A DNA stretch of 25,499 nt from Chiloscyllium plagiosum (GCF_004010195.1 NC_057717.1:105719927-105745425), one strand, 5' to 3'; shown: positions 100-25,070, counted from the stretch's first letter. Notes: generated by a model from the sequence alone, not told the origin. Numbers and translations: made by a program.

Positions 100-370
100 C
101 CACACACCAGGTTATAGTCCAACAGGTTTAATTGATGTGCTTCCAATTAAACCTATTGGGCTATAACTTGGTGTTGTGAGATTTTTAACCCAGTCCATCT
201 CCAAATCATGACTACTATCCACGCCAAGATAAGCACTCCACAACCACCTGATGACGGAGCAGCGCTCCAAAAGCCAGTGCTTCCAAATAAACCTGTTGGA
301 CTATAACCTGGTGTTGCGACATTTTTAACTTTGTATACCCCAGGCTAATACCACCACCTCCAAAATCATC
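100..370. mobile_element. Penelope-like element (PLE)-derived terminal repeat, family C: an inverted copy plus a tandem direct copy
   Basis: 104-134 and 144-174 are inverted repeats (28/31). 137-189 is directly repeated at 277-329. A hammerhead-like core lies at 248-279. Inverted plus partial-tandem termini are typical of PLE insertions. Confidence 0.7.
245..279 (+). ncRNA. Degenerate minimal hammerhead ribozyme motif (family C)
   Basis: CAC-CUGAUGA-C-GGAGC(AGC)GCUCC-AAAA-GCC-A-GUG. Stem II is a perfect 5 bp and stem I is CAC/GUG. G12>A and U16.1>C relative to the hammerhead consensus, so it is probably inactive. Confidence 0.65.
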
Positions 371-1104
371 ACACCAAGATAGTAAGTGACTGTTGGCTAT
401 TGGTTCAAAGTTAAGCACCAGCACCAAATTCCTCCACTGCACAGACACTTTGCTGTGAAAAATCACTGTGAAAAAGACTACTGTCACAAAGAGACACCAT
501 CACCGATTCCACTTCTCCTCCTATTTAATTGCAATGTCCCAGTAGAGTTCAGCTCATCCCCAGACAGACAGTTCAGGAGCTGGAGGACCGTCTTGATTCT
601 GTGACTGTGGCTTTGCAGCTGTCTCTCTCAATGATCCCATGCAGTCTTGGATTTAAATTGGTTCCCTGTCTGATCAGAGTCACAGCACCTCTAGCCATGT
701 GTAATTCTGCGAAAACTCCAGCTTTCACACATACTTCACTGACAGCTCAACCTCCCCACCACCTATCTTCATCTCACAACTTCTTGTGTGCTGTCTTGAA
801 TAATTCTGAAACTTGCTCCAACTAAACACTGGGAGAAACATCACAATTGTCTTCAGGTGCCAGTCATGTCATTCCCATGCCCAGGCAAGACTTCCAGCTC
901 TGCTGAGACTGTTCATCCCCATTCAATCACCTTGAGCAACCTCAGCCATATTTCTTGCCAAAGGCTCAATTCTTCTGATGCTGGTGCTGACAACCTTGCG
1001 ATTGTCTATTCACCATCATCTCCAGCTTGGCCCAGACTGCAGGTTATAGGCAGCACAAAGTTCAGCTTCCTCTTTACACTCATCCTTTTGGGCCCGACAA
1101 GCTC

Positions 1105-1402
1105 CTGATCTCCTGATTCCCCATTCCTCAACTTTACAATTCCATCCTCAACTTAAACATTCCTAAGTCACTTCACCATTTCATTTTTGCAACTTCTGGA
1201 AGCCCTACAGACTTCCTTCAAATGCTTCCTTCCTCTATCTCTGGCCACTAATAAATCTTCCTCACGTGGTTTCAGTCACTTTGACCCCAATCTCGAAAAT
1301 GGCTCCTCTAAACCCATTAACAACCATTTTTGGTAAATACGTTCAGCTCAGTTGGAGTATTGAGGAACATTTTGCTACATTAGCTATGCTCCATTAAATT
1401 GC
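1105..1402 (+). mobile_element. Highly decayed L2-like LINE 3' end
   Basis: Pyrimidine-rich tract ending in gaggaacattttgctacattagctatgctccattaaattg, resembling the L2/DeuSINE-type tail (gggacgttttactacgttaaaggcgctatataaatg, from memory). Confidence 0.35.
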
Positions 1403-2851
1403 TGTAACCCAGTTACAGAACAGGTGTACTTGCGATGGTCTGATCGAACCCTCATGACTACATTCTGGCCCTTAAAAGATGAAAAATCAACATTACCTGG
1501 AGAACCTTCCAGAGGAGCCCTTCACTGTACAAGGTTACAGCAGTTATGTGGATTAAAACTGTCAAATGAGCCTTCAACACTGGCCACTCAACGTCCTACT
1601 TCCCTTCCAGCCATTATCTCTCAGCACCAGGCCCTGAAATGTGCACACTGGCTTGAGCACCACATAACCCACCAGTTTTACTGCTCACAGGTTTTTGTTT
1701 ATTGTGAAAACATTAAAGCCAGAAGTCAAAATAGAGAAGTTGTGGGGAAACACACAGCACCACTGAGATGGAAAGATCAGCAGCGTCATCAGGGTGTGCA
1801 GAGCAGTCAGCAAAGGGTAAGGCAGTCCAGAGGCAATCTCTGTGGGTGAGCAATGAAATGTGACTAACATAGCCTTTTTTGGTTCTGGTCTCCAAAGTCT
1901 AGTGCACTAATCTAACTTCTGAACAAACCACAGAGCGTGCAAATCTGTTTAACACTATAAATGCCAATGAGGTGGCCTGTTATCTTGTTTGAGAAAATTT
2001 ACGGTGAGGTAATGTTAATACGTCCTCATCAAGATTTTGCTGGTTTTGAAAACGTAAAAATCATACTGAATGAATCATGAAGCAGTATCATGGTTTACAT
2101 TTTGCGAAGTGATGGTGGAGGAGTGGGAATTGCCAGGGGTCCCCCAGTGATTCACTGGACACAAAGCTCTCTTATCTTTCAAGGTCCCCAACACATCGTT
2201 ACATGCACAGTTCCCAACAGATCACCATCAGGTTTGATTTTATTCCCCCAACTGCAGGGATGCTGATGGCAATCACAGAAATCCTCTCAAGACCAAAGCA
2301 GACCATAAGACACATGAGCAGAATTAGGCCATTCAGTCCATCTAGTCTGCTCCCCATTTGATCATAGTATGTTTCTCAACCCCAGACTCCAGCCTTCTCC
2401 CTTAACCTCTGACCCCCTTTCTAATCAAGAACCTCTCTCGGTCTTAAATCCACTCAATCACCTGGCCTTCACACATTTAAGTGGCAGAGTTCCACAGATT
2501 CACCATCCTCTGGCTCAAGAAATCCCTCTTTATCTCAGTTCTAAAAGACCACCTCTTCACTCTGAGGCTGTGACCCCAGGTTCTAGATTCTCCTACTGGT
2601 GGAAACATCTTCCCCATGTCCACTCTGTCCAGGTCTCTCAGTATTCTCAGAGTTTCCATAAGATCCACCCCCCCCCCCCATCCATCTTCCTCAACTGTCA
2701 AGTGCAAACCCAGAGACCTCAACTGCTCCTCAAACCCTTCATTCCTGGGATCATACCCGCTGTGGACCCTCCAAAGCCAGCACATCCATCCTTAGATACG
2801 AGGCCCAAAATGTTTCACAATATTCCAAATACCATCTGACGAGGGCCATAT

Positions 2852-3040
2852 GTAATTGAAGTGTGGTGCTAGAAAAGCAGAGCCGGTCAGGCAACATCCG
2901 AGGAGCAGGAGAGTTTACACTTCAAGCATGACCTCTTCATCTCAACACATCAATTCTGCTGCTCCTCAGATGCTGCCTGACCGGCTGAGTTTTTCCAGTA
3001 CCACACTTCCGACTCTGATCTCCAGCCCTCACTTTTTCCC
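2852..3040. mobile_element. Palindromic PLE-derived miniature element (family A)
   Basis: Inverted arms at ~2859-2916 and ~2952-3008 (aagtgtggtgc...ggtcaggca / tgcctgacc...ccacactt). Flanked by a 9/10 direct repeat, agggccatat (2842-2851) and agggccctat (3041-3050), a candidate TSD. Confidence 0.8.
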
Positions 3041-3063
3041 AGGGCCCTATACAGCCTCAGGAG

Positions 3064-3506
3064 TAGAACATAGAACAATACAGGCCCTTCAGCCCTCCAT
3101 ATTGCACCAACCTGTGAAACCAAACTAAAGTCACTCTAATCTACATTATTCTATTATCATCCATATGTTCATCCAATGGCCACCGGGGAGGGCTCAGTGG
3201 TTAGCACTGCTGTCTCTCAGCACCAGGGACCCCGGGTGACTGTCTGTGTGCAGTTTGCACATTCTGAGTCTGCGTGGGTTTCCTCTGGGTGCTCCGGTTT
3301 CCTCCGACAATCCAAAGATGTGCTTGCCAGGTGAATTGGCCTTGCTAAGTTGCCCACAGTTTTCGGTGCGTTAATAAGGGGTAAATATAAGATACGGGAA
3401 TGGGTGGGTTACTCTTTGGACAGTCGGTGTGGACTTGTTGGGCCGAAGGGCCCGTTTCCACGCTGTAGGGAATCTAAATCAAATTTAAATGCCCTTAAAG
3501 ATGGGC
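3064..3506 (-). mobile_element. Short CR1 3'-end fragment interrupted by a SINE
   Basis: Begins with a tagaacatagaaca-type terminal microsatellite and ggcccttcagccc. The sequence atccaatggcca|tttaaatgcccttaaag is split by the SINE. Confidence 0.65.
3183..3483 (+). mobile_element. HE1-like tRNA-derived V-SINE (elasmobranch)
   Basis: A-box-like ggctcagtggttagc (3191-3205), V-domain-like core (tctgcgtgggtttcctctgggtgctccggtttcctcc), and a 3' tail gggccgaagggcccgtttccacgctgta matching CR1 3' ends in this window. Confidence 0.88.
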
Positions 3507-3875
3507 AATGTTAGCATTCACGAGAATGCTACTGTTGTATTCTTGCTCTCGTGAATGCTAACATTACATTTAGAGTCATGGAATCAGAGTCAAATAGCAC
3601 AGAATCAGATCTTTTGGTCCTACCACACCACACAAACCATAATTCCAAACAAAAGTAATCCCACATGCCTGCATTTGACCCAAATCCCTCCAAACATTTC
3701 TTATTCTTGTACTTATCCAAATGTCTTTTACAAGTTGTAACTGTACCTGCACCCACCACTTCCTCTGGAAGTGCATTCCACACATGGACCACACGCCATG
3801 TAAAAACATTACCCCATGTCCTTACTACACATTTCTCCTCTCACCTTAAAAATATGCCTAGTTTGGAAATCCCCT

Positions 3876-4422
3876 ACACTGTACAGGGCATTGGTGAGGC
3901 CTCTCTGGAATACCATGCCCAGTTCTAGGAAGGATATTATCAAGTTGGAAAGGGTTTATAAGAGATTTACCAGATGTTACTGGGTATGGAAGCTCTGAAT
4001 TATAAAGGAAGGTTGGATAAGCTGGGAACTTTTTCCATTGGAGCGGAGGAGGTTGAGGAATGACCTGATACAAGTTTATAAGATAATGAGAGGTATAGTT
4101 AAGATGAATGGCAGGTGTCTTTTCCCTAAGGTGGGGGATTTCAAGACTGGGGGCACATTAAGGTAGGATGAGAGGAGAAAGATTTAAAAAGACGCAACAG
4201 GCAAATTGTTTACACAGAGGGTGGTTCATGTGTGGATTGAACTTCCTGAGGAAGTGGTTGATGTGGGTACAATTACAATGTTTAAAAGACATTTAGTTAA
4301 GTACATGAATAGAAAAGTTTGGAGGGATATGGGCCAGCAGCAGGCAGGTGGGACTAGTTTAGTTTAGGAACATGGTCAGCATGGACTGGGTTGACTGTTT
4401 CTGTGCTGTATAACTATGACTC
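3876..4422 (+). mobile_element. 5'-truncated CR1 LINE inserted in the opposite orientation
   Basis: LYRALVRPL...RKDIIKLERVYKRFTR, followed by a CR1 3' UTR ending ctgtgctgtataactatgactc. Confidence 0.85.
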
Positions 4423-4894
4423 AAGAGACAACATCTGCCATTCACCTTACCACGATTTTATAAACCTCTAAGATCACCCTTCAATGTCCTACACTCAAAT
4501 GAAAGTAGTCCTACCAGTCCAGCCTCTCCTCATAACCCAAACTCTCCATTCTGAAACCCTCCCCAGTTTAATATCATTCTGATAATAGGGTGACCAGAAC
4601 TAAATACAGTACTCCAAAAGAGGCCTCACCAACATCCTGTACAACGTCAACATGACGTCCCAACTCCTATACTCAAAGGTCTGAGCAATGAAGGCAAGAG
4701 TGGTAAATGCCTTCTCAACCACCCTGTCTATATGTGACACAGATGTCAAAAAATGTCAAAGTACATGACCCAAAGCTCTACTTTTAAGTGGATAAGTCCT
4801 GCCCTGGTTTGTTTTACCAAAACGCGATGCCTTGCATTTAACCAAATTAAACTCCACCTGCCACTCTTCAGCCCATTGAACCAACTGATCAAGA

Positions 4895-6715
4895 TAGAGT
4901 CTAGAGATGTACAGCATGAAAACAGACCCTTCGGTCCAACCCGTCCTTGCCGACCAGACATCCCAACCCAATCTCGTCCCACCTGCCAGCATCCAGCCCA
5001 TATCCCTCCAAACCCTTCCTACTCATATACCCATCCAAATGCCTCTTAAATGTTGCAATTGTACCAACCTCCACCACATCCTCTGGCAGCTCATTCCATA
5101 CACGTACCACCCTCTGCGTGAAAACGTTGCCCCTTCGGTCTCTTTTATATCTTTCCCCTCTCACCCTAAACCTATGCTCTCTAGTTCTGGATTCCCCAAC
5201 CCCAGGGAAAAGACTTTGCCTGTTTATTGTATCCATGCTCCTCATAATTTTGTAAACCTCGATAAGGTCACCCCTCAGTCTCCGACGCTCCAGGGAAAAC
5301 AGCCCCAGCCTGTTCAGCCTCTCCCTGTAGCTCAAACTCTCCAACCCTGGCAACATCCTTGTAAATCATTTCTGAACCCTTCTGTAGGAGACCAGAATTG
5401 CATGCAATATTCCAACAGTGGACTAACCAATGTCCTGTACAGCCGCAACATGACCTCCCAACTCCTGTACTCAATACTCTTACCAATAAAGGAAAGCATA
5501 ACAAATGCCATCTTCACTATCCTATCTACCTGTGACTCCTATTTCAAGGAGCTATGAACCTGCACTCCAAGGTCTCTGTTCAGCAACACTCCCTAGGACC
5601 TTACCATTAAGTGTATAAGTCCTGCTAAGATTTGCTTTCCCAAAATGCAGCACCTCGCATTTATCTGAATTAAACTCCATCTGCCACTTNNNNNNNNNNN
5701 NNNNNNNNNNNNNNNNNNNNNNNNNNNNNNNNNNNNNNNNNNNNNNNNNNNNNNNNNNNNNNNNNNNNNNNNNNNNNNNNNNNNNNNNNNNNNNNNNNNN
5801 NNNNNNNNNNNNNNNNNNNNNNNNNNNNNNNNNNNNNNNNNNNNNNNNNNNNNNNNNNNNNNNNNNNNNNNNNNNNNNNNNNNNNNNNNNNNNNNNNNNN
5901 NNNNNNNNNNNNNNNNNNNNNNNNNNNNNNNNNNNNNNNNNNNNNNNNNNNNNNNNNNNNNNNNNNNNNNNNNNNNNNNNNNNNNNNNNNNNNNNNNNNN
6001 NNNNNNNNNNNNNNNNNNNNNNNNNNNNNNNNNNNNNNNNNNNNNNNNNNNNNNNNNNNNNNNNNNNNNNNNNNNNNNNNNNGATTTATCCACCTTTAAC
6101 TGTTTCAAGGCATCCAGCACTTCCTCCTCTGTAATCTGGACATTTTGCAAGATGTCACCATCTATTTCCCTACAGTCTATATCTTCCATATCCTTTTTCA
6201 CAGTAAATATTGATGCAAAATATTCATTTTGTATCTCCCCCATTTTCTGTGCCTCCACACAAAGGCCGCCTTGCTGATCTTTCAGGGGTCCTATTCTCTC
6301 CTTAGTTACCCTTTTGTCCTTAATATATTTGTAAAACCTCTTTGGATTCTCCTTAATTCTACTTGCCAAAGCTATGTCCCTGTTTTGCCCTCCTAATTTC
6401 CCTCTTAAGTATACTCCTACTTTCTTTATACTCTAAGGATTCACTCGATCTCTCCTGTCTGTACCGGACATATGCTTCCTTCTTTTTCTTAACCAAACGC
6501 TCAATTTCTTTAGTCATCCAGCATTCCCTATACCTACCAGCCTTCCCTTTCATCCTGACAGGAGCATACTTTCTTTGGATTCTTGTTATCTCATTTCTGA
6601 AGGCTTCCCATTTTCCAACCTGCAAACATCTGCCTTCAATCAGCTTTTGAAAGTTCTTGTCTAATACCGTCAAAATTTCTCCAATTTAGTACTTCAACGT
6701 TTCGATCTGGTCTAT
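4895..6715 (-). mobile_element. Young CR1/HER1-type LINE, 5'-truncated ORF2, spanning the assembly gap
   Basis: Long, little-decayed ORF pieces: LPGLESLSYRERLNRLGLFSLERRRLRGDLIEVYKIMR...VRVWNELP, and ASRIKENPKRFYKYIKDKRVTKERIGPLKD. Highly similar to 16103-16803 on the opposite strand. Confidence 0.92.
5690..6082. other. Assembly gap (393 N)
   Basis: Run of n characters. Confidence 1.
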
Positions 6716-7451
6716 CCTGTTTGTATTCTTAAATAACTTTCTCCACAGTCCACTATACCACCAATTTTGGTGTCATCCACAAACTACATACTACTCATCT
6801 AAATCATTTATATCAATGACAAACCAAAGTAGATCCAGCACTGAACCCTGTGGAACAACATTCCAGCTGCAAACAAACTATGTTAATGACAGGAGTTCTA
6901 GTACGGGATTCTTGAGTCCCTTTGTGCTTCCGACTTCTGAAGCCTTCCCCCATCGAGAAAATAGTCCATGCTCCTTTCTTCCAATCACAGTGCATCCCCT
7001 CACACTACTCCACATTGTTTTCCATCTGCCACTGTGCCCATTCTCCTAGCCTGTCCAAGTTCTTCTACAGCCTCCAAACCTTCTCAACACTACCTGCCCC
7101 TCCACTTTGACTCATGTGTGAAATTAGCAACAACGCCCTCATCCTTTGGCTGGATTGTTCATGTATAATGAAAATAGTTGTGATCCCAACACTGAACCTT
7201 GCAGAACTCCACAAGCCACTGGCTGCCATGCTGATAAAGACCCCTTTATCCCTGCTCTCTGCCAGTCAGCCAATTCTCTATCCATGCCAATACCTTGCCC
7301 AAAACTATGGGCTCTTATTGAGTGGCACACATCAGAATATATCATGCTCACTGATTCTCTTTTGCCTAATTTGGTCATTATCTCTGCAAAGAATTGTAAT
7401 AGATTTGTTAGGCATAACCTCGCCTTGATCAATGAGCCCTATTTTCCCATG

Positions 7452-7675
7452 TGAAATAACTCCACACAGGCCAGTGGCCCGTCAACAAATCACCCCTGGT
7501 TTACACACGAACAGTCCTTGACTTTCATACTGCCTCTTCAGAGCCAGCTACTGGAGTGGCAGAATCTGACGCTCCCTTTTTATCTGTCAGCCAGGACTCC
7601 CCGATTGGGACTGTTAACCTAGTCAAAAACTCATTCTGTAAGATCCACCTGGCTGATCCTGTTACAACCACAACA
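7452..7675 (-). mobile_element. Solo LTR (probably Gypsy-type)
   Basis: A 224-bp insert with TG...CA ends (tgaaataac...cacaaca) that interrupts colinear CR1 sequence (gccctattttcccatg | cacttccaag). Decayed 5-bp TSD ccatg/caata. Resembles a shark LTR as I recall it. Confidence 0.7.
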
Positions 7676-9093
7676 CAATACACTTCCAAGTATTCCACAG
7701 TTTCACCTTTAATAATCCTCACCAGCAATCAAGGTCAGGCTAACCACCTTCTGCCCCCTTCCCTTATTAAACAGGGGTGTTACGTTAATCATTTTCCAGT
7801 CCTCTAGAATCCTCCCTGACTCCAACAATTCCTGAAAAATCACCAGTGCCTTTGTGATCTCAACTATCTCCTTCAGAACTCTAGCCTCTCCCTTATCTCT
7901 TTTCTATCTTCAAAACCAAACTCTTCTAATCTTCCTTCATAAAACAGCTTGCTGTCATATTTCATCTTGCCCATTAGTGATTTTGTAGTTATCCGCTGTT
8001 GGTTTTTAAAGGTTTCCCAAACCCATTGATCTTCACACATCATACACTTTTTCCTTGTCCCTGGCTTCCTTTGTCAGCTATGGTTGCCTCATCCTCCCCC
8101 TTTGCATGTTTCTTCTTCCTTGGGATGGATTTCTGCTCTGCCACCCGAATTACCCCCAGAAACCCCTGCTATTGCTGCTCCACCATCTTGCCTATTAAGC
8201 AATTCTGGCCAGCTCCTCGCTCATGTCTTTGTAGTTACCTTTCCTCAATTGTAAAACTGTTACATCTGATTCCAGTTTTCTCCCTCAAACTACAGGGTGA
8301 ACTCTATCATATCATGGCCTTCTTTCACCTTACACTCCCTGACCAAGTCTGCCTCATTACAATCACCAAATCGAGAATTCCTGTTCTTTCGTGGACTATA
8401 CTATAAGTAGCTCTTAAAAAAAAAGAAACATCTTGTAGACATCCCATGAATTCTTTTTCTTAGGATCTGCTTATCAACTTGATTTTCCCAGTTCACCCGC
8501 ATATTGAGGCCCCCATAATTATTCTTGTGTTGCCTTTGATACATGCCTTTTTTTACGTATTTCCTTTCCCACAGCCTGAGGCCCGTCCATAATCTCATCA
8601 TGCCTTTTTCCCTTTGTGTTCCTCAACTCCACCCACATCGATTCTAAGCCTCCTGACCTTATATTAATTATTATTGATTCCATTTCATTTCTTACAACAA
8701 CCCAACTCCTCTGCCGGTCCGCCGTCCTTTTGATAGGATGCTTACCTTTGGATAATTTACTTGACAGTCCTGATCCCCTGACAGCCACAACATCGCAATG
8801 GCCAATTTCAACTGACCTACAAGCTCATTAAACTTGTTTTATATACTGTGCATATTTAAATACAACACTCTGGGGCCTGTGTTGAGCAATCCCCTTCTCA
8901 GCTGTCCCCATATCTGTTGTTTCTGAAGGGAGATTCCCGATTCTCTCCATACTTCACCCTGTAATGTGTTCTGGAAAGCTCTCTCTCCTGAGCTCTTTTC
9001 TATAATATTCTAGGAAATTGAACCTGCCACTCCCACACCTACTTAGTTTAAACCTTGATTTACTGCTGTAGTTAAGCAATTTGCCAGGACTGT

Positions 9094-9170
9094 GCTCAGC
9101 AAGTCTGACAACGTCTGGGAAGAGAAATCAAAGTTCATGTTTCAGGTTGAGTGACCCTTCTTCAGAACTA
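9094..9170 (-). mobile_element. PLE terminal fragment (family B) with a hammerhead motif
   Basis: Minus strand reads AGUU-CUGAAGA-A-GGGUC(ACUC)AACCU-GAAAC-AUG-AACU. Stem I is AGUU/AACU, but the cleavage triplet is mutated to AUG. Homologous to 10467-10560. Confidence 0.75.
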
Positions 9171-10144
9171 GTTTATATTTGAGAGGATCAAGGATCATCC
9201 TGTTGCTTGCCTTCCACCTCAGACTTTCTGCTAAGATAGTGTTCTTCAGCTCCAACCAGTGCAGACTTGATCCTGTTCCATTCCATATAACTGATGCTCA
9301 TTCCTGGAGAATGGCAAAGATGGCAGCACTTCTTCAAAACAATACCTAAAGATGTATTTAGTTAAGAGTACTCACCTCAACATCAGAGAAAAGGAAGGAC
9401 AAATCAAGTCTAGCATGGTGGATGTTCTAACCTGGAGCTGAAATCGTCTGAGCAACTGCCAAATTGTACAACAGGTCTCAACATCAGCAAAACTGACACT
9501 GTATTGACCTATGATTTGTAACATATGATGATTTTTAAAGGGACAAGCCGCAATTCAGCTCTGCTTCATTTCAAGTTTATCCTTCGAGGCGAAAATGACT
9601 ATGTTAATCACCTGGAGTGTTCTGTGGGGTTTTCATGGATGCATGATGTGGACCCAGGTCGTTCAGCTGTAAACAGGGTAAGATACCCAAGATGATAAAG
9701 TTTTCAATCAGTTGCCAGTTCAGGATTTCCTCTCTGTGCTTTTCCATTTCGATATAAGCTTGCTTTCAAAGAAGGCCACATCATTCTTGACTTCGTTCCA
9801 CTCAGTGCTGCAAGTCTGGGTGCATTTCCTTTCGCTGTCATAATTGTGGAAAAAAAGGTGAAGAGGAACAAAAAGGAGCAAGTCTGCCAAACCAGCTGAA
9901 GTTGATGGAGCAATAGCCTGCCCATTCTGTTCTACACATGCAAGACTTGGACTGTGTGGCAGTCATAACATGAAACAAAGCTGAGATCATATTGTAGCAC
10001 AAAATGTCAGACTGTGAGCTCCACATTTGATCTGACACAAATAGACACACCCAGACTGAACTGGTCACAAATGGATTGAATTGGTCCTCTTGCCGGAATG
10101 CCTGACATGCATTTACCAAGTAAATCATGGCCTGGTGAGTTCGA

Positions 10145-10592
10145 TCATTTCAGGGTCTGAACTTTGCCCATGTCCCAGCCCCCTACCCCACACACCAGGC
10201 CTTCTTATCACAGTCTGCCACTACATACTACCTATTGTTAGCCACTGAAGTCTCCATTAACAACTATTCACCTGAAGCAGACAAGCAGGAGGCTGGAACA
10301 GCAGCAAGCCAGGCAGCATCAGGTGGTGGTGAAGTCACCACCACTCCTGTGCCTCCAACTATTCTTTTTTCTCTCTCTCTCTCTGGGTTCTATCCCCAGC
10401 AACATTTAGCCCTTCCTGCTGCCCCCCCCATCTTCTGCATATAAACTAACATTTTCCTGGCAAATTATCAGATCTGAGGAAGGGTCACCGGTCCCGAAAC
10501 GTTTACTCTGATTGTTCTTTACAGATGCAGCCAGACCTGCTGAGCTTTCCCAGCAACTTCTGTTTCTGATTTACAGCATCTACAGTTCTTAC
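10145..10592 (+). mobile_element. PLE 3' terminal region (family B), including a small inverted family-A-like fragment at ~10272-10337
   Basis: C/T-rich tract, then the hammerhead core, then the tail acagatgcagccagacctgctgagctttcccagca...cagcatctacagttctt. Confidence 0.72.
10467..10512 (+). ncRNA. Minimal type-I hammerhead ribozyme motif (family B) with an intact catalytic core
   Basis: AUCAGAU-CUGAGGA(10474-10480)-A-GGGUC(ACCG)GUCCC-GAAAC-GUU-UACUCUGAU. Stem III is the palindrome ACGU, the triplet is GUU, and distal stem I is AUCAG/CUGAU. The two proximal stem I pairs are mismatched. Confidence 0.75.
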
Positions 10593-11579
10593 ATTGGACT
10601 GTCTGTCCACTTCACTGAGCTAACTTCATTTATCGGACCTATGAAGTCCACTTGGGTATCTTTTAAAAATACTTAATCCCTCAAGTTCTCATACTCAAAG
10701 ATTTGTTCCAATGAAACTGGCTATTCTGGTTAAAAGCAGCAATGTTTTCAAGTGACACTCCCTGCACGCTCTCAGATTTGAAACTTGATGGCGCTTATTC
10801 ATTTGATGAGCTTGCGAATCAAGTTGCTCAAGGCAGTGTCTGTCTCAAACATTCCTGACAGTTTTACCTCACAGTCGAACGTCCCTTATATTCCTTTCCA
10901 CTTTTTGCTATCCAACTTTCAACTTGCTGCTGAAAAGAACAGGAATTTAGTTAGCCCATTTCTCAAGCTGAGCAGGCCTTGAAGTGCTCAACAGCCAATT
11001 CAGAGGTAGTCTATGAAACAACCAAGACAATGTGACAAGAGTACATAGACATCAAACTACTTTCAATACTTTTCTGTGGAAATGACAAAGTGCAGTCACT
11101 GTTCTTTTACAGACCAAAGCAGGAGCCAAGTTACAGATGGCAATAAGCTCCAGAACCAATTCATCTGTTTTGTTGACGGTTGCACAGGAAATAATTGTTA
11201 GCCAAGCTATCAAAGAAGATTTCTTGTTTAATTCCAACAGGGCCCTGGACCAGACTGCTGTTGAGCATTGAGTTCAATGGGCAGGGAAACCAGAGAAGGT
11301 ATTGTCCATGCTCCCACTTCTCACGTAGCATTTTTGATCTTGAATTTTGGTAAAATTATCAACAATGTAGTACAGCCCAATCCCCAAATCCACCCAAGAT
11401 CCATGCATGTATTTTCCACTTTGATAATGCTCATCAGGAGGAATCTTGGCCAATTGCCTCTTGAAATCTGGCACCCAAAGCAACAGTTGTGCCACAGCTG
11501 GGATCTGAAAAACAAGTTGAAATTTGGGAGTTTTTGGTCTGTAGGGCTCAATTGTTAACATTCATGTTCAAGTAAGGTG

Positions 11580-11940: not shown

Positions 11941-12081
11941 TTTGTACTGGTTCATGAAAGGAAAATAAAGCCCACTAGAAATAGCCTGCATTTTCCAGCA
12001 CCAAAATGAGAGGTGAAGTGAAACATTTGACTCATTACCACACAGTCCACAAGCCACAGCCAAGTCCATGTTCAATAAGCA

Positions 12082-13257: not shown

Positions 13258-13955
13258 GTTTGACCACAACGTGAACAATTTTGGTTGCCTTAGCAAGGGA
13301 AAGATACAGTGGCATAGAGAGTAATCGAGACAAGGTTCACCTAGTTGATCCTACGTATGCAAGCATTTCCTTAAGAGTAAAGGTCAAAACAGGTTGGTTT
13401 GGTATTATTGGTGGAGTTTAGATTGACAGGGTTGATGCAGAGATGCACTTCCCAATGTGGAAGATTCTCTGATCAGAAGGCATAGTCTCACAGTAAGGGG
13501 TCACTTGTTTAAGACAAAAGAGGTCAAATTTCTTGTCTCAGACAAGATAATTTCTTTATCACAGAGCAGTCAAAGCTGAGACAATCAAAGTATTCAAGGC
13601 TCAGAAACAGCAATTTTTAAACATCCAGTGAATCCAGGGATATCAAGTAAATTGAGCGATGAGCAGATTGTTACTATTACCTCCTACCTTTGCCCACCTC
13701 TCACCATCCCATCTACCTTTCCCCTAGCCCCCCACAGCTGTCTTTATTTTTCAGCCCCCTCCTGCTCTCCAATCCTGATGGAGGGTTATGCCCGAAACAT
13801 CAACTCTCTTGCTCCTCAGATGCTGCCTGACCTACTGTGCCTTTCCACTGCCACACGGATTATCAGATTAGCCATGATCTTACGGAATGGTGGAACAAGC
13901 CATGATCTTACGGAATGGGATGACTGGCCTACTTCTGTTCATGGTTGTTAAATGA
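13258..13955 (+). mobile_element. Decayed CR1 3' fragment interrupted by a PLE terminus
   Basis: aaggttcacctagttgatcc, gacagggttgatgcagag and ggcatagtctcacagtaagggg. The 3' UTR resumes at ~13858 (tcagattagccatgatct...tggcctacttctgttc). Confidence 0.7.
13665..13857 (+). mobile_element. PLE 3' terminus (family A) with a degenerate hammerhead at 13771-13806
   Basis: AAUC-CUGAUGG-A-GGG(UUAUG)CCC-GAAAC-AUC, followed by the family A tail gctcctcagatgctgcctgacct...ccacac. Confidence 0.78.
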
Positions 13956-15691: not shown

Positions 15692-16804
15692 ACTCTGTTT
15701 AAGAAGGGTGGTATGGAAAAGGCAGTGAACTATAGACCAGTGAGCCTGACGTCAGTGGTGGGCATGTTTTGGAGGGAATCCTGAGGGACAGGATATACAT
15801 GTATTTGGAAAGACAAGGACTGATTCGGGATAGTTAACATGGCTTTGTGCGTGGGAAATCATGTCTCTCAAACTTGATTGAGTTTTTTGAAGAAGTAACA
15901 AAGATGATTGATGAGGGCAGAGCAGTAGATGTGATCTATATGGACTTCAGTAAGGTGTTCGACAAGGTTCCCCATGGGAGACTGATTAGCAAGGTTAGAT
16001 CTCATGGAATACAGGGAGAACTAGCCATTTGGATACAGAACTGGCTCAAAGGTAGAAGACAGAGGATGGTGGTGGAGGGATGTTTTTCAGACTGGAGGCC
16101 TGACTTAATGGTAAGGTCCTAGGGAGTGTTGCTGAACAAAGGGACCTTGGAGTGCAGGTTCATAGGTCCTTGAAAGTGGAGTCGCAGGTAGACAGGATAG
16201 TGAAGGTGGCATTTGGTATGCTTTCCTTTATTGGTCAGAGTATTGAGTACAGGACGTTGGTTAGGCCACTGTTGGAATATTGCGTGCAATTCTGGTCTCC
16301 TTCCTATTGGAATGATGTTGTGAAACTTGAAAGGGTTCAGAAAAGATTTACAAGGATGTTTGAGCTATAGGGAGAGGCTGAACAGGCTGGGGCTGTTTTC
16401 CCTGGAGCATCAGAGGCTGAGGGTGACCTTGTAGAGGTTTACAAAATTATGAGAGGCATGGATAGGGTAAATAGGCAAAGTCTCTTCCCTGAGGTGGGGG
16501 AGTCCAGAACTAGAGGGCATAGGTTTAGGGTGTGAGGGGAAAGATATAAAAGGGACCTAAGGGGAAACATTTTCACACAGAGGGTGGAAGTGTATGAAAT
16601 GAGCTGCCAGAGGAAGTGGAGGCGGCTGGTACAATTGCAACATTTAAAAAGTCGTCTGGATGGGCATACGAAAAGGAAGAGTTAGGAGGGATATGGGCCG
16701 GGTGCTGGCAGGTGGGAACTAGATTGGGTTGGGATATCTGGTCGGCATGGTCGGGTTGGACCGAAGGGTCTGTTTCCATGCTGTACATCTCTACGACTCT
16801 ATGA
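15692..16804 (+). mobile_element. Young CR1/HER1-type LINE, RT region to 3' end, with internal deletions
   Basis: LFKKG...NYRPVSLTS; GKSCLSNLIEFFEEVTK...VDVIYMDFSKVFDKVPHGRL; LVRPLLEYCVQFWSP; terminal ctctacgactctatga. The QGS/ADD catalytic segment is missing at ~16102. Confidence 0.93.
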
Positions 16805-17029
16805 GCTGACAAGTTCCATGCTGGTGGCATCAAAACAATATCAACATGTCAATAAATATCTGAGGATTCCGAATGAACTTACAACCCCAACTCCAAAGGA
16901 GCAAACATCCATTGTGACCAACCAAAGATGTTACTGTTGGATTAAAAGAAGTTGTCTATAATTTCACCGACACAGCATCAAGTCAAACTTTTGGAGAATT
17001 TTAGATAATGATGACCAAGGAACTGATAA

Positions 17030-17400
17030 GCATAAGGTGATACAATAAGTGTAAACTAACCCAAAATATAAGAATTATAATGAAAACTGAGGAGATTTAA
17101 CTGATATAATTGAGATAAGGAAATAGTTGACATTAAACAGAAATGTTATAACCATCTTCAGAGCACAAGATAAAGAAACATGAGAAATAGCAGGGAATAA
17201 ACATGGTGAGTGTGAGGAACTTAATGGAAAAGTATTGAACAAGAATGCTGTTGAAATCTCCTGAACCAGGTAGACTCTATTCTCAAGTTCTGAAAAGGCT
17301 GGCTGCAGAGTTTATGTCTGCGATCTTCCAAAGTTTCCTTCAGCGTGGAACAGTCACACTGGATTCAGAAAAAAATCACCCCACTTTTCAAGAAAGAAGT
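17030..17400 (+). mobile_element. Old CR1 ORF2 fragment (pre-RT region)
   Basis: KSPEPGRLYSQVLKRLAAE..IFQS resembles the CR1 motif KSPGPDGxHPRVLKELAxE..IFQxS, followed by caccccacttttcaagaaag (TPLFKK). Confidence 0.7.
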
Positions 17401-17929
17401 AGTTTCCTTAATTCTGGTGTTTCAGGTCAATTCAGAGATCATCCATTGTCACTCAGGTATCTCACTGTTGTCCAACTATTCACACACAAGTAATTCTGCA
17501 GTAAGCCTGACACTTTGACCAACTGCTCCATGCCCAGCAGCATCACCACAACATGAAGTCACAACAGCTCTGGAAATAACCAGCAAAACTCTCCCTCTCA
17601 CATCCACCAAGCTCTTTAAAAAACAATTCCTCGAGAAAATGTCAAACCAACATATTCTTGCAGTACAGTTTTCACTTCTTGCTATACACAAATCGACAGT
17701 CTAAAACATAAGCAGCTCAGGCTCTAGCATCATTCACACCTCTCAGGCCACTGCCTACCACAGTTTAGGCTAAAGCAGTGCTATCCCCAAACACTACCAC
17801 CATTACCCAGAGAAACGTTTCCATTTCTCAACGTCACTAGGCTACATCCTTGGGATTCCCACAATGGAAACTATGAACCCAGGAGGAGTTCAGCAGATTA
17901 TAAAGGGCCATCACTCTTGGATAAAAGCA

Positions 17930-18005
17930 CATAGGATCATCAACCTGCAACATTAACTTGGTTTCTCTGCCTGACCTGCTCAACATTGCCTGCATTTTTT
18001 GTTCT
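17930..18005 (+). mobile_element. Very decayed PLE family B terminal fragment
   Basis: acctgcaacattaacttggtttctctgcctgacctgctcaacattgcctgcatttttt resembles 10493-10560. Confidence 0.5.
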
Positions 18006-19334
18006 AATCCCATCTCGGCAGTGCTGGGGTTGGGTAATTAATACAACATTGCTGTGTTGCAACCAAAAAAAGCTGCAGAGAATGGGTTTTAGCAAACGAA
18101 GTCCAGCTAAATTCCCCTCTGGGCATGATACAGCAGCTCAAACAGCCCCCCAGTCAATTAACTCCACCTCTTAGCCCCCGCTCCATTTACTCAAAGCAAA
18201 ACAATCTTTACCTGCTCTGCCTCAATCGAGACACCAGTGCTTCGGGTAGCCAAAGCTGTCACAAATGTATACAGCTCCCTTTGTTATCAACAATCCTCCC
18301 ATCCTGGGTGAGGAGTTTCAAAAATATGACATCATCTTGCAGAATCTTCGATCAAATCAAACTAATCGTTTCTCAAATCCTTTAGCAATGAAAGGCAGTG
18401 AGTCAGAGTCTCTCCCACACTGAAACAAGACTCCCCCTCTGCCTCCTCAGTCACTGCTGCATCGACAAATATCTGAATCCAACACAGTCCAGGCAGCTGA
18501 CAGACGTGAACCAACCAGTTCAGCAAGATTCAGGGAGAATTGAAATTCACTTTCACTGAATTTACACAAACAAAACCTTGCACAGAATTCATTGCAACTG
18601 CCAGCAATCCTTGTTACTCCCAAATTGGAATTTAATAAAACAGATGGAATTCTGGAATTTAAAAAATGCAAGAATGTACAGAAAATTCCTCACCCCGTAA
18701 TACATTTCCAAGAATCATTTATCTCAATTCCCAGATTCAGGCTGAAGCCTTATCCAACTTTCCTTTTTAAAACCTCGCTGCTAAGATTTCTTCTCTCTCT
18801 CTCTCCTTACACAGAGGATACTTTGCGTGGAGATACACAGAATATTTGCAAGTCAAAACTTCAACGTGTGGCGGGTACAAAAGTGTAAACATATTCTGTT
18901 CATAATCTCACTCCAGGGTTTAAGGCTGATGTCTGTCAACAAGGCATACTCAGTAACAATGTACAAACCAAATGTCAACTAACCGCCAACTCAGACTCGT
19001 CTTCTCCACTCAAAAGAATTCAAACAAACTGAACCAATCTGAGCACAATGACCCTTTTGGTTCAATCCTATTAGGAGTCTGATGAAATGCTCTTGGAGCA
19101 CCACTGCTGCAGAGTACTGGGGTATTCCATACCCTCAAGGACTGCTGCTGATTTTAAGTGCATCTTCCGTGGCCTTACAATTGAACAAACATTAAAGAAG
19201 CAGTCGTTTAGCTTCCAGAGTGATAGGTTTGTAAAACTTAGCAGAGAAATCTGCCAAACATCAATATTCCCTCAACAATTATTGTTTAAAACTGCCGACA
19301 ATGTAAGATGTTTATAGAGGAGTCACATGACTAG

Positions 19335-19525
19335 CAACTGGAAGATACAAAATATTTGGTACAAATCAAGTCAGAGGTGATAGAAGGAGAACTTATTCCT
19401 GAGTGAGGCTCTGGGATGTGTTTTGTTAAGGAGCAGTGGCAGCAGATTCAGGACTAAGTTTCAAGTGTCATCAAATGCATAATAAAGGAAATATTTTCAA
19501 GACAATTTGGAAAGAGCAGCTGTCA
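19335..19525 (+). mobile_element. Very old CR1 3' remnant
   Basis: Weak resemblance to CR1 ORF2 end and 3' UTR (agaaggagaacttattcctgagtgagg...gcagtggcagcagattca...ggaaagagcag). Confidence 0.35.
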
Positions 19526-20214
19526 GTGATTCTCAAGTCTGACACTGCACAGCCACAGCCAACATTCTGTGCTGCTAAATTCTATCAGGGCCAACAAGAT
19601 GGCCAAAAGGATCAGGAAATCCCACATTTGTATCAACTCAGTACATTGCCATGGAGTCGATGTTTTGTTCCAGACAGGAGAGTTTTCAGAAACCAACACC
19701 ACAATCAGCCAATGGTCAGAGCCTCCCACCACACTGCCACAACTAGTGTGAACAAAACTGGAATAACAAAAACAGAATTATTGTGACAAAGGAAGATTGG
19801 TTTGTGGACAGGAAGTGCACATCCTGTGCAAGACTTTAAATATATTGGTCAAACAGATTGCTCACAATGCATGATATAAAAACACTTACCAGAAATTAAG
19901 ACTCTTTAGTATGGCAAGGTGCCTATGCAATCATTTTAACTCATACATGAGAAAACATTAATGAATAACACAATAGCATCATCCCAGCGCCAAATTCTCA
20001 AAGGAATCAATCGAAAATTGAACTCTCTGGATTAAGTTCTCTGTTCAAAGTGAGAAACCCACATCCAAGGAAGCAGCATGAAGCTAACCTCTGCATGTTT
20101 CTCACAAATCCCAGACTTGCTGATATGCTCAAAATACTAAACTGGAACTAGGTCGACCAGAATGGGTTGGTAGGGAGGGAGAGAGAAAGAAAACTGTGAT
20201 GGGCCTTTCTTCAG

Positions 20215-21265
20215 AGAGGTCAGGCAGCATCAGAGGATCATAAGAGGTAATGTTTCAGACATAAGGAAGGCTTTCATCAGGAAATCAGCAGACCGGGGTT
20301 GTGGGGGGGGGGCACGGTTTGGCACACCAACCTTGACATCGCTAAGGCCCTGCCAACTCTCAAATATTCTACTCCTGAAAAGGATCCACACACAAACACT
20401 TGTTCTCCAGCTTATCAGACATCAAGGAACATAAGTACATCAAACTGTCACTTACTTAGCTCCAAACCCAGGATTCTCCAACCAATCCAGACACTTCCCC
20501 CCGGGAATATATATCGGGTATGAGCAGGTAGGGAAAGAGTTGACAATGCCCCAGCCTCCACAAAACCGCTACAGCCACCACTATGACCCTCACCACTAAA
20601 CTGACCGAGACCACCATTGACCATACTGCCTCCTCAGTCACCATGAGTCCTGCTGCCGAAACCTCGACGAGCACAGCCCGTTACATCACTTTCACCCCGT
20701 GATTGCTGCCCCGACACCACTTCCAACCCCACTGATGTCACTCTCAGAATACCACCATGCCACTTCCAGATGTGGCCCAATGTGCCACTTCCAGATGTGA
20801 CGTGTCGCGACATCAAACTTTCCTTCCACTGCCTCTGCCCCCATGCTTGCTTTTTCAACGTGACTCCCACCTACCTTCTGTGGACCACCTCTCCTGCCTC
20901 TAACATACACCATTCTCTTGGATGCTCTGTCCTGGGCTCTTACCCGTCCTTAACCTCTTCATCTCCAACTGCTGCTGTGGCATTGACTGCCTCAACCTGT
21001 CCACCCCTCACCCACTCCAACCTATCACCCTCGAAAAGTGCAGCCCTCCAGTCCCTCCGCTCCAACCCAACCTCACCATTACATCAGCGGACAAGGGGAG
21101 AGCACATGGTAGTTTGGCACATTGACCTCTACATCGCTGCAGCCACACATTCCTGATTAAGGACTTATGCCCAAAATGTTGACCCTCCTGCCTGACCTGC
21201 AGTACTTTTCCAGTGCCACACTTTTCAACTCTGACTCTCCAGCATCTGCAGTCCTCACTTTCTCT
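20215..21265 (+). mobile_element. Internally deleted Penelope-like element with inverted hammerhead-bearing termini
   Basis: Frameshifted PLE pre-RT coding remnant (GLLPVLNLFISNC / THSNLSPSKSAALQSLRSNP / NLTITSADKG / VVWHIDLYIA, ~20930-21145) fused directly to a family A terminus (21151-21265). An inverted family A terminus lies at 20215-20281, followed by a second KSAD...VWHTNLDIAKA remnant. Confidence 0.78.
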
Positions 21266-21399
21266 CATTTCTCCAGACAGCAAGACAAAGAATAATCAAC
21301 TCAATCCAAAGCAACTTGGTGAACCACAAAGATATTGTTCAAGACCTTGAACTCAGCTACTGTCCCACTGTTCCAGTTCAAGCAGATGTAAGGTTGAAA

Positions 21400-21595
21400 G
21401 TAGGATCCCAAGAAAGGGAAGACCATTCAACCCCTCAAGCTTGTCCCAGCCTCAACTCACGTCTGCCAGACTCTAACGCTCTTGCTTATCAATCTTTCTT
21501 CATCGGACAATCCTTCATCCCAGTAATCAACTCACTGAATCTTCTGACTGCTGCCAAAGCATAACCTGCTTAAGGAAGGACACCAAAACTGTATA
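21400..21595 (-). mobile_element. Heavily deleted CR1 3' remnant
   Basis: gaccattcaacccctcaagcttgtcc and cttcatcccagtaatcaactcactgaatctt...caccaaaactgta match the minus-strand CR1 3' pattern seen at 2330 and 23220. Confidence 0.5.
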
Positions 21596-23204
21596 ATAAA
21601 AGTAATTGCACACAGAAAAGGGTAGATATCTACAATCCACACAAAGAACAGTGACTAGGTGCAATAATTTTTTTTTTAAGGAAGTAATAAGGTTGGGCTG
21701 TGGTGTTGGGTAAACGAGAAAATGAATGCAGGATCTGCTGCAAAGGATTGAATTCTGACTGTCAATGGGCAGACTCAGTTTAAACAATTTTTACAGCTAC
21801 TCAGTCTTCTTCATGGAGCATGTCACAGGATAAAAGGAACTCTCAGTGCCTCACTCACACAAATGCTAACTTTATGAACATACTGTGGCAGATCTCAGCC
21901 TTGCTATGACCTTGAAGTACACTCAGTAGTCACAACCAGCCGTGGGCTCACCTCCTGAACCTAAGGTTACTCAGGTCAATGGCAGCATTTCAACTCCTCT
22001 CAGCATTCTGAGACAATGAAACAAAGGGGTTTCCTTTCGAGTCCGACTGCTTTATTTGTACATCAACTTTTGCCATCGAAGAAATCTTGTCTTTGTTTCG
22101 GAGACAAAGGCCCACTGTTCCTATCGGCTACCTATTTCTCACTCAAAAACGCTCTGTGCATGAACGTCATCACATCTGTGGTGCGCTGAGCTCATTCATG
22201 GTTTCTGATTTTACCACAAATGCACATTTTGCGCTGGGCGAAAAACACAGTACAACTTGAAACATGGCTTTAAGGATCTCATCGACCTATCGGATAATAT
22301 TTTTGTAAAGAATTAGGGCAGTGTCCTCAGCACTTGGCATCAACCTCCTCAGAATGACCCATTTGATAGTCTTTGTACCAATAAAACGGGCCCACAAAGA
22401 AATCTGCTTCCTCTCTACCTATTCAAGGCTTGAAACTCAAGACCTCCAAAACCTCAAACCAAACCTCCAAATCATCCTTTAATTTTCCAGTCATCGGTAT
22501 TTCTTGATTGTCCTCATCAGTACCAAGGTTGAAAAGAGAAGGAATATCAACATTTTCCTCAGCTTCTCAACTGATGGTATGCCCAGGTAATAATGATGGA
22601 AGACTTTTCCATTGTCCACCTCAAGTGATAATATTTCACCACTTTTCCTTCCAAGTTGCAGTCAGCTGCAAGGCAATTCAATAAAACAAGGAACCAGTGT
22701 TCAAATATTTCTGTTACAATAACCAAAAACTCACCCAGTGTCTAATAACCGATTCCCAAAAATACAGGTACTGGAACCTCTTTGAAGAACTATTTCATCC
22801 AGTTTTTCTTCTCAGCTGGTGTGCCTCTGCTTGAAGGTTGGTGTTTGATTCACAGCAGTCTTTCTATACCTTCCAATCGCATGCCATCCTTTCCATTTAC
22901 CAAGAACATCCTTCAATTTCTAAGCCATCAAGCATGGATACTCTCTTCCTTACTCTGATTCTTTGAAATCTCCCCACCATGACGTCTTTTACACGTCTAG
23001 TTCATCTTAAAAATGCCCTACCAAGACCCTCTGCATTTTTATGACTAGGCCAACAGGTTTTTGTTTATTCTTTCTCTACGACACTATTACTTTCTCTGTG
23101 CTGATTGATTCCAATCTCCTCCAAACCCACATTTCGAAACTAGCCTGATCACAAAATTACAGAGAATTTGTCCCCTCTAACTTCAGATTCTTGGAGTAAC
23201 CTGA

Positions 23205-23772
23205 GAGACAGAGGCAGAAGGCAGCCATTCAGCCCATCAAGTCTGGTTCACCATGCATTAAGACTAAGGCTGCTGTCTCAGTCCTCAACTCAACTTTTTG
23301 CCTTTTCCCCTTAATCCTTGATTCCCTTACTGATGACAAATCTGTCTTGTCTCAGTCTTGACTATAGTAAATGACTCAGCCTCAACAGCCCTTTGTGCTA
23401 AAGAATTCTACAGATTCACTACCCGAGAAGAAATTCCTCCTCATCTCTCTTAAAATGGACAATCCCTTACTGAGATTATGCCCAGTGATCCAAGACTCTC
23501 CCACAAGGGAGAAACAACCTCTGTATCTGCCTTGTCAAGCCACAAAGATCTCTCTTTTATTAAGGTCTCCTCTCAATTTTCTGAACCCCATTAAGCACAA
23601 GCCCAATTTACTCAACCTCAAAAAACAAAACGTTCCATACCTGGAGATAAAACCAAAGAACATTCTTCAGCCTGCTTCAAACGCCAGTATATTTGTTCTC
23701 AGTTAAGGGAACTACAACTGCTCACACAGTATTCCAGCTGTGCACTGACCAGTGTTTATCCAGTTTCAACAA
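23205..23772 (-). mobile_element. CR1 LINE 3' fragment
   Basis: gccattcagcccatcaagtctg...aagaattctacagattcactacc...gaagaaattcctcctcatctc...caactgctcacacagtattccag, homologous to 2320-2840. Confidence 0.82.
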
Positions 23773-23782
23773 GACAGTGCAG

Positions 23783-23804
23783 GAGAGAGAGAGAGAGAGA
23801 GAGA
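23783..23804 (+). repeat. (GA)11 microsatellite
   Basis: Directly visible; lies at the start of the putative 5' UTR of the downstream CR1. Confidence 0.95.
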
Positions 23805-24147
23805 ACCTGCACAGTTATTGCCTTTGCTGTTTGAATTTGTGTATCACTGGACATCAGAGTGCATCCGGGAAAATTAACAAACACTGAAATTCACAACTAA
23901 TCTTGGAGGAACTGTTGGGCGAAGTTCACAGCACAGAATCAGATAAGTTAATTGTTGTTTTAAGTGTGTCCAAGAGAAAGGCTGCAGTAGTGAGTACAGT
24001 GGATTTGTTCTTGATTATATGTTTTTGGAGATAAGTCTTTTGATTAAACTTAAAATGTAAGTCATAGCTATTAATTTAACCTGGGACAGTGTTTGTCGAG
24101 GAATAAGAAAGTTATTTTCTGGGTCTGTAGATTGTGAAGGAGCAAAA

Positions 24148-25070
24148 ATGGCCTTTGCAGTGATATGTACTTCTTGTCAGATGTGGGAGTTTAAAAAGAG
24201 TTTAAGGGTTACTGTGGATTATATCTACCATCTTATCAGATCGAGTGGATTAGTTGAAGAGACAGATAGAAGCGATGAGAAAGTAGGGGGTGATGGATTC
24301 TCAGGGGAACGTAGCACGAACAGCTAAGTTTCTGGTATTGAGATTGGTTCTAATGCAACAAGGGGTACGTCAGCTTCTAAGAGATCAATTGTGTTAGGGG
24401 ATTCTGTAGTCAGAGGTACAGACGGACATTTCTGTGGCCAGCAGAGAAAAAGCAGACTGGTGTGTTCTCTGCCTGGTGCTAGGAGAAAGTGAGGACTGCA
24501 GATGCTGGAGATCAGAGCTGAAAATGTGTTGCTGGAAAAGCGCAGGTCAGGCAGCATCCAAGGAGCAGGAGAATCCACGTTTCGGGCATAAGCCCTTCTT
24601 CAGGCTCATGCCCAAAATGTCGATTCTCCTGCTCCTTGGATGCTGCCTGACCTGCTGCCTGACCTGATGTCTCAGAGAGGGTGCTGAATATTCTGACGGG
24701 GGAGAGGGGCCAGCAGGAGGTCATTGTCCACATTGGAACCAACGACACTGAAAGGGAAAAGATTGAGATTTTGAAGGGAGATTACAGAGAGTTCGGCAGA
24801 AATTTAAAAAGGAAGTCCTCAAGGGTAGTAATATCTGGATTACTCCCAGTGATACAAGCTCGTGAGGGCAGGAATAGGAGGATAGAGCAGATGAATGCAT
24901 GGCTGAGGAGCTGGTGTATGGGAGAAGGATTCACATTTTTGGATCATTGGAATCTCTTTTGGGGTAGAAGTGACCTGTACAAGAAGGACGGATTGCACCC
25001 AAATTGGAAGGGGACTAATATACTGGCAGGGAAATTTGCTAGAACTGCTTGGGAGGATTTAAACTGGTAA
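24148..25070 (+). pseudogene. CR1 ORF1 remnant (N-terminal CxxC plus SGNH/GDSL esterase domain), disrupted
   Basis: ATG at 24148 gives MAFAVICTSCQMWE. Block I IVLGDS (GDS at 24397-24405) and LPGAR precede the insertion; VIVHIGTND (block III) and DGLHPN (block V) follow it. Stop at 25068-25070. Confidence 0.88.
24482..24666. mobile_element. Palindromic PLE-derived miniature element (family A) inserted into CR1 ORF1
   Basis: Arms 24543-24594 and 24603-24654 (48/52 complementary, 8-nt loop). Minus-strand hammerhead CUGAAGA-A-GGGC(UUAU)GCCC-GAAAC-GUG at ~24603-24575. Tandem 12-mer ctgcctgacctg at the right end. Confidence 0.85.

Follow-up and report, generated by a model that had tools for sequence, protein, structure and literature searches.

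Probable copies of two short, abundant retroelements beginning with a Penelope-type minimal hammerhead motif in the shark Chiloscyllium plagiosum

Minimal type-I hammerhead ribozymes are known from the Penelope-like elements (PLEs) of many animals, and their consensus, as given by Cervera & de la Pena (2014, PMC4209133), is NNN CUGANGAH G..C GAAAN Palind NU H NNN. Four features of these motifs were not imposed by the search that recovered them: a base that lies between position 9 and position 10.1, a G10.1-C11.1 pair, a palindromic 15.2-16.2 stretch, and the existence of families with compensatory changes. The motifs reside in the pseudo-long terminal repeats (pLTRs) of PLEs, occur mostly as solo motifs dispersed in sequence families, and are expected to act as dimers. 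The highest counts of minimal motifs in that paper are ~4,000 in the coelacanth and ~9,000 in Xenopus, and its chordate alignment includes no cartilaginous fish; for the axolotl, with its far larger genome, 126,247 canonical hammerhead motifs have been reported in the literature. Here we analyse a stretch of 25,499 nucleotides from Chiloscyllium plagiosum (GCF_004010195.1 NC_057717.1:105719927-105745425), called the window at its full length, in which a first-pass annotation had noticed seven hammerhead-like loci that it assigned to three families, A, B and C. We consider it likely that these loci represent copies, for the most part dead, of two very abundant retroelements that are short and do not code for protein, one (A/B) of ~124-128 nt and the other (C) with a tandem unit of ~140 nt, and that in both of them the RNA-sense strand starts with a minimal type-I hammerhead of the PLE type.

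All seven coordinates of the first-pass annotation (248+, 9165-, 10474+, 13775+, 20280-, 21153+, and 24603-) are correct, and a CUGA-type string begins each locus. According to BLAST, alignment, and profile searches, a single ~124-nt repeat accounts for six of the seven, and for this reason the loci are not independent of one another. The annotation had regarded A and B as separate families; because the downstream part is common to both, they are subfamilies of a single element, and only C differs. On the hammerhead strand, the homology begins 1 nt before CUGA in five of the six copies that are not inverted arms (reference positions 1-2), the sequence upstream of the motif is not conserved, and the 3' end lies 95 nt beyond the predicted cut. 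The full-length family-A element occupies 24481..24604 (-), and its motif at 24604-24576 consists of C, CUGAAGA, an unpaired A, GGGC-UUAU-GCCC, GAAA, CGU, and then G17, which places the predicted cut between 24576 and 24575 and the element end 95 nt further on.

To see this element outside the window, public contigs of two related organisms and of one probable RNA run (X15) were compared with window positions 24350-24800 at a likeness of at least 80%. This region is matched by 124,142 and 98,017 contig pieces in the two organisms and by 9,647 in the probable RNA run. The very high copy number that had been proposed is therefore borne out for family A, with ~1e5 distinct contig pieces per run in two organisms, although the summed contig depth is not a copy number and 25,916 pieces fit two places owing to an inverted arm. 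For the same reasons, we dropped the depth profile as a measure of 5' truncation. The summed depth is 4-12 million inside 24481-24604 versus 0.02-0.4 million in most flanking bins, and the edges at 24480-24482 and 24604 are sharp, with ~1,000 or more contigs at each running into unrelated AT-rich sequence. The flanks 24350-24480 and 24660-24800 are themselves lower-abundance repeats in both organisms, with depths mostly of 1e5-8e5 per bin. In X15 the repeat lies within longer contigs and on both strands, and this run is uninformative on cleavage. A raw single-cell RNA run, X22, yielded no matching reads, a result that carries no weight.

The letters of family A follow the hammerhead rules closely. 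The window letter is held in at least 90% of the depth at all 11 core positions, and the only hammerhead positions that vary in at least 10% of the depth are N7 (A/U), C11.1>U (9-13%) and G16.2>A, both of these at CpG, and position 17. The last of these reads C in 78-89% of the depth over the three runs and U in 11-21%; in other words it is H, as the hammerhead rule demands, and the G of the 24481-24604 copy is exceptional. The majority letters are C-CUGA[A/U]GA-A-GGGC-UUAU-GCCC-GAAA-CGU-C, and ACGU is the majority form of helix III. The old copies in the window have kept the core as well: when the seven other copies are compared with the 24481-24604 copy, 62 of 66 core cells match versus 449 of 593 cells elsewhere (Fisher p=2e-4), or 428 of 559 elsewhere when CpG sites are left aside (p=3e-4). 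This excess identity fits a constraint on the core in the source lineages.

Set beside the minimal hammerheads of PLEs (PMC4209133), family A shares CUGANGA, the unpaired nucleotide after A9, G10.1-C11.1, GAAA, and the palindromic 15.2-16.2 without loop 3, followed by U and H. The PLE-type minimal architecture claimed in the first-pass annotation is thus upheld for family A, which shows the first three of the four features that the published search did not impose, together with H17. The fourth, families with compensatory changes, appears to be present, and the covariation pointing to it is thin: the 5-bp stem II proposed for B is imperfect at both listed B loci, the B helix I AGUU/AACU is fully paired at 9165- (4 bp) and only in two of four positions at 10474, and the GAAA and AGCU attributed to family C had been inferred and not read, this copy having AAAA and AGCC. 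Stem II has 4-5 bp here versus mostly 5-8 bp in the published alignment. Further differences are that the motif here stands at the extreme 5' edge of a ~124-nt non-coding unit, that it is known here from such short units, for which a link to PLEs is presumed, and that its abundance is apparently one to two orders of magnitude above the maxima in that paper.

Locus 248+ belongs to the second element, C, which is unrelated in sequence to A/B and is present as a partial tandem with a unit of ~140 nt. Its second unit, at 248..381 (+), starts with the motif at 248-276: CUGAUGA, an unpaired C, GGAGC-AGC-GCUCC, AAAA (with G12 lost), GCC (with U16.1 lost), and A17. Helix I is of 3 bp, formed by CAC (245-247) with GUG (277-279), and the cut is predicted between 276 and 277. 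The partial first unit lies at 137..247 (+), and 137-231 aligns with 277-381; its first base, 137, therefore aligns with the base directly after the predicted cut of unit 2, and the two bases upstream of it are mismatched. An inverted 34-nt arm, corresponding to unit positions ~8-38, lies at 101..134 (-) according to self-comparison and alignment, and the 9-nt loop of the resulting hairpin (135-143) contains the first 7 nt of the unit. Two elements of unrelated sequence, A/B and C, carry a hammerhead motif at the same end. Pattern scans for families C and A in genome and viral contig collections gave no matches.

Inverted partial copies adjoin the hammerhead end at three loci, 99-174, 2836-3039, and 24481-24657. 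At the last of these, the arm 24606..24657 (+), which covers element positions ~12-62 (self-match 24542-24655 with 86% identity; nhmmer E=8e-14), folds with the copy 24604-24481 into a hairpin. At 2836-3039, an inverted copy with a decayed hammerhead end at 2836..2946 (-; profile search E=2e-23) forms the left arm and a copy at 2935..3039 (+; E=1e-25), which lacks the first ~12-20 nt and reaches the normal 3' end, forms the right arm of the predicted fold. Craig et al. count partial tandems among the PLE hallmarks, together with an inverted copy adjoining the 5' end. The short arms seen here stop before the 3' end of the element, and thus a fold-back of the cDNA fits better than two opposed insertions. 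Some side observations concern these hairpins. They score as spurious microRNA precursors in Rfam (2864-3003 as MIR533, E=4e-4; 24548-24648 as mir-680, E=0.31; 99-177 as mir-2005, E=0.65), and hairpins of an element copy and its arm could be mis-annotated as microRNA genes. At the outer end of the arm at 24606-24657, a 12-nt unit from the element interior is repeated 2.2 times (24641-24666; Tandem Repeats Finder score 52).

These features can be combined into a tentative course of events. Source copies would be transcribed, at least sometimes as multimers, in which two motifs could pair through the palindromic ACGU (A and B) or AGCU (C) to form helix III, and the RNA would be cut after C17/U17 in A or A17 in C, probably with the aid of a PLE protein, as in the Anolis Poseidon element. 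A PLE reverse transcriptase (RT) acting in trans would then start the cDNA at a constant position within the RNA, ~95-105 nt downstream of the cut, which would define the 3' end of the element, and a fold-back at the RNA 5' end would leave the short inverted arms. A described parallel is the Anolis Poseidon PLE PAc (Mob DNA 2024, PMC11167929), in which reverse transcription begins 111-118 nt into the ORF (open reading frame) that starts at stem II. Our element likewise keeps a fixed distance from hammerhead to 3' end, with 115 nt separating the start of stem II from that end; this likeness is one of distance and not of sequence comparison, PAc has an ORF where our unit has none, and our 3' end shows no obvious AC-rich stem-loop.

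Several observations weigh against this reading. Cleavage 3' of the core does not account for the abrupt 5' boundary immediately upstream of CUGA, and neither does the PAc work; such a boundary may reflect templates of unit length that arise at the RT start site, or else circles. No window copy is an intact ribozyme, as none of the seven loci is a complete hammerhead, and no PLE ORF was found among the 45 ORFs of the window (Pfam), the only domains being a LINE-type (long interspersed nuclear element) RVT_1 and a GDSL esterase. The ACAU variant, which is not palindromic, accounts for 18-24% of the family-A depth and for three of the seven window loci (9165-, 13775+, and 20280-), and the palindrome is therefore not strictly retained. 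In the pile-up, variation in the hammerhead part is not lower than elsewhere in the element (4 of 29 versus 6 of 95 positions vary in at least 10% of the depth), and the RNA fold of one A/B copy is not unusually stable (z=+0.54). The contiguous helix I of family A is only UC/GA (2 bp), as in the fly and mosquito rows of PMC4209133, where vertebrate rows have 3-6 bp. It reaches four of five pairs if the 5' GAUU of a few tandem joints belongs to the element, and such joints are rare (44+36 contigs in run X1, among 124,142 pieces, and 26+17 in run X9). Finally, the start of the family-C unit 1 at a predicted cut is one instance only, and its probability under chance is on the order of a few percent.

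The state of the single motifs in the window varies among the copies. The full pattern described in the first-pass annotation (CUGAnGA, an extra nucleotide, a hairpin, GAAA, and a self-complementary 4-nt stem III) is present at 10474+ and 24603- and not at the other five loci. The catalytic core, C3 U4 G5 A6 N7 G8 A9 with G12 A13 A14, is retained at four of the seven loci (9165, 10474, 20280, and 24603). An unpaired nucleotide between A9 and 10.1 is found at all seven, being A in six and C at 248, and the closing pair G10.1-C11.1 is G-C at five, with G.U at 9165 after a CpG change and decay at 20280. The palindromic ACGU without loop 3 is retained at two loci, and position 17 is H at five, with G at 9165 and 24603.

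Among the individual copies, that at 10474..10595 (+; profile search E=3e-30) belongs to subfamily B and its motif at 10474-10503 has kept the core, ACGU, and U17, with an internal U.U mismatch in stem II and an unpaired helix I. In the other B copy, 9064..9165 (-; E=7e-13), the motif at 9165-9136 combines the core with ACAU, G17, and a stem II of 4 bp that includes a G.U pair, and its flanking AGUU/AACU are able to pair. The family-A copy at 21152..21264 (+; E=1e-26) has a dead core, its motif at 21153-21180 reading CUGAUUA .. AAAA UGU U with G8 and G12 lost. An older A-like copy at 13774..13880 (+; E=2e-24) has at 13775-13801 CUGAUGG (A9 lost), a 3-bp stem II, and ACAU followed by C, and in an old A-like copy at 20159..20281 (-; E=6e-14) the motif at 20280-20249 retains the core with a decayed stem II and ACAU as helix III. 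Five more A/B pieces bring the number in the window to ~11 per 25 kb: the three hairpin parts at 2836-2946(-), 2935-3039(+), and 24606-24657(+), the 3' part of a family-A copy cut by the window end at 25427..25499 (-; E=8e-19), and a weak, very decayed B-like copy with an unrecognisable core at 17929..18025 (+; E=4.5e-4). The last piece was considered as a LINE tail and, lying ~1 kb beyond the end of the LINE ORF, was judged to be another decayed copy; an apparent 3' truncation of old A/B copies vanished under a wider alignment. Two observations on the element interior may be added. In the predicted minimum-free-energy and centroid folds of 24481-24604(-), 8-nt stretches at element positions ~47-54 and ~100-107 pair with each other, and the 10474 copy retains seven of the eight complementary letters of this predicted pairing, a possible recognition structure. 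A second CUGAAGA-A start at 20217-20200(-), after the conserved middle of the 20280 copy, has no GAAA downstream and is probably due to chance.

Matches to a short and degenerate pattern are expected by chance, and the seven loci have to be judged against that background. The simple string CUGANGA..GAAA occurs 11 times in the window compared with 3.52 +/- 1.86 in shuffled sequences (maximum 8), and none of 100 shuffles reaches 11; six of these strings, at five further loci, look like chance and lie inside the shuffle range. Our own descriptor of core and stem II finds four loci in the window, where 300 simulated windows gave 0.34 on average and never more than 2. Three of the four are among the seven loci, and the fourth, 11437-, looks like a chance match. 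As filters are added, the count falls from four to two with the palindrome, to one with H17, and to zero once helix I must have 2 bp or more; only 10474+ passes core, palindrome, and H17 together. The motif excess in the window is a real signal, and the motif belongs to a repeat with ~1e5 contig pieces whose majority letters obey every core rule. That the loci as a whole are chance matches is accordingly extremely improbable, and for families A and B this explanation is effectively refuted. A very different doubt is whether a genuine descendant of a PLE hammerhead has ceased to cleave and serves as a structure or binding site for the RT, or simply hitch-hikes, an explanation to which we give some weight while holding it to be rather unlikely. 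It would account for the very short helix I and the abundant ACAU variant. It also agrees with the results on PAc, the best-studied PLE, which weigh against our preferred reading too: insertion in vitro does not require the PAc hammerhead, reads terminating at the site of its cut are absent, and it cleaves only with protein (PMC11167929). Metazoan minimal hammerheads cut poorly in vitro (PMC4209133), PLE clades without hammerheads proliferate well, and the motifs may merely parasitise PLEs (Craig et al.). On the other hand, C3, G5, A6, G8, G12, A13, and A14, positions needed only for catalysis, are held in at least 90% of the family depth, position 17 of the family is never G, the old copies have kept their cores, and one family-C copy starts at the cut site.

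The main rival is an ordinary LINE-dependent short interspersed nuclear element (SINE) on the opposite strand, whose hairpin would be the 3' stem-loop for a CR1/L2-type RT and whose likeness to a hammerhead would be fortuitous. Elements of this class, too, are short and non-coding, reach very high copy numbers, and carry a conserved hairpin near one fixed end, a trait that we take to be shared by the eel pair UnaL2/UnaSINE1, and a hairpin alone cannot discriminate between the strands. The window contains CR1-like LINE pieces, with RVT_1 at 15838-16119 and an esterase ORF at 24663-25067, and CR1 LINEs dominate shark genomes according to the literature. Against this, the 11 fixed core letters, H17, the bulge, and the palindrome would have had to arise by chance, and twice, in unrelated elements, and the hairpin here is enclosed, on the other strand, by a full hammerhead core. 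In six of six copies, the hammerhead-side end, the supposed 3' end of a SINE, is followed by no microsatellite-like or A-rich tail. There is no tRNA-like head either: ARAGORN finds no tRNA-like gene in the window, weak evidence in that it would miss a decayed head. Self-comparison of the window revealed no resemblance to its LINE pieces, and the inverted arms and the family-C start fit a hammerhead end that is the RNA 5' end. A fortuitous likeness on a SINE is therefore quite unlikely in our view, and the reading of A/B and C as retroelements with a PLE-type hammerhead at the RNA 5' end is preferred; we infer that the hammerhead strand is the one transposed.

A further comparison is offered by the non-LTR retrozymes of animals (Cervera & de la Pena 2020, PMC7229834; preprint 10.64898/2026.07.22.740005). 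They too are non-autonomous, carry a type-I hammerhead, are presumed to depend on PLEs, and have dispersed monomer derivatives. Retrozymes form tandem arrays of 150-450 bp units (mean 363 bp in the Chondrichthyes sample) and circular RNAs, whereas A/B are dispersed monomers; Tandem Repeats Finder detected no retrozyme-like head-to-tail arrays in the window, where the A/B copies are dispersed and family C has only 1.x units. The first-pass annotation had supposed that the AGCU/CUA variant of family C and the density of motifs may be poorly described in sharks. In our literature search, only that preprint (Li, Clavereau and Pollet 2026), whose main text reports tandem retrozymes in the one Chondrichthyes species sampled, connects hammerheads with cartilaginous fish, and we met no account of minimal motifs in comparable abundance. 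A literature search with three strings from the window returned only unrelated primer matches. The Rfam hammerhead models gave no match in the window, either at the gathering threshold or at E<=10, and this silence carries no weight, because the models do not cover the class: 20 of 20 control loci with the same type of motif, from metagenomes, were missed.

The same motif pattern was found in those metagenomes, in DNA of other animals, with 101 matches in 98 loci, and helix I has at least 4 bp in 60 of the 101 versus ~4% expected by chance. In a termite-associated family of the type of metagenome locus L008, the homology stops ~75 nt past the cut. As side observations, three of the metagenome loci (L008, L057, and L094) have two minimal hammerheads head to head on opposite strands and 140-165 nt apart, and in the L008-type family (nine aligned sequences) ~85 nt upstream of the motif are conserved and form a long inverted repeat.

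The neighbourhood of the copies contains other pieces of mobile DNA. CR1/L2-like LINE fragments lie at 15838-16900(+), with RVT_1 at 15838-16119 (E=5e-6, below the Pfam cut-off) and a long conserved C-terminal ORF2 region visible in the translation. LINE-related pieces on both strands occur at 3500-5690, including rearranged copies with 67-81% identity at 3596-5688, beside an N gap at 5690-6082. An open frame at 24663-25067(+) matches Lipase_GDSL_2 (E=2e-12), a GDSL/SGNH esterase domain, and the Atlas clusters nearest to it are chordate 'hypothetical proteins'. This frame begins directly at the point where the family-A inverted arm has its outer end. In CR1-like LINEs, ORF1 can carry an esterase domain.

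The kind of element described here is known. Its occurrence in this lineage, its very high abundance there, and the small size of the unit may be new. More speculatively, and in our opinion doubtful as yet, the ~124-128-nt unit may be little more than a minimal hammerhead joined to the stretch required by a PLE RT and rank among the commonest repeats of the genome; a tentative extrapolation of the window density gives ~1e6 copies, amounting to a few percent of the genome. In that case the main 'SINE' of the lineage would be a parasite of PLEs and the densest reservoir of ribozyme motifs known in a vertebrate. The sharp edges at the presumed RT start, and not at the cut, would point to unit-length RNA templates that are processed there or circularised. 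If the dependence on PLEs holds, PLEs would in fact drive some of what is classed in such genomes as 'unclassified' or 'SINE', and the unit would be a natural PLE template reduced to ~124 nt, useful for studying how the RT chooses its start site, while the role of the hammerhead would become testable on a very large natural library of mutants.

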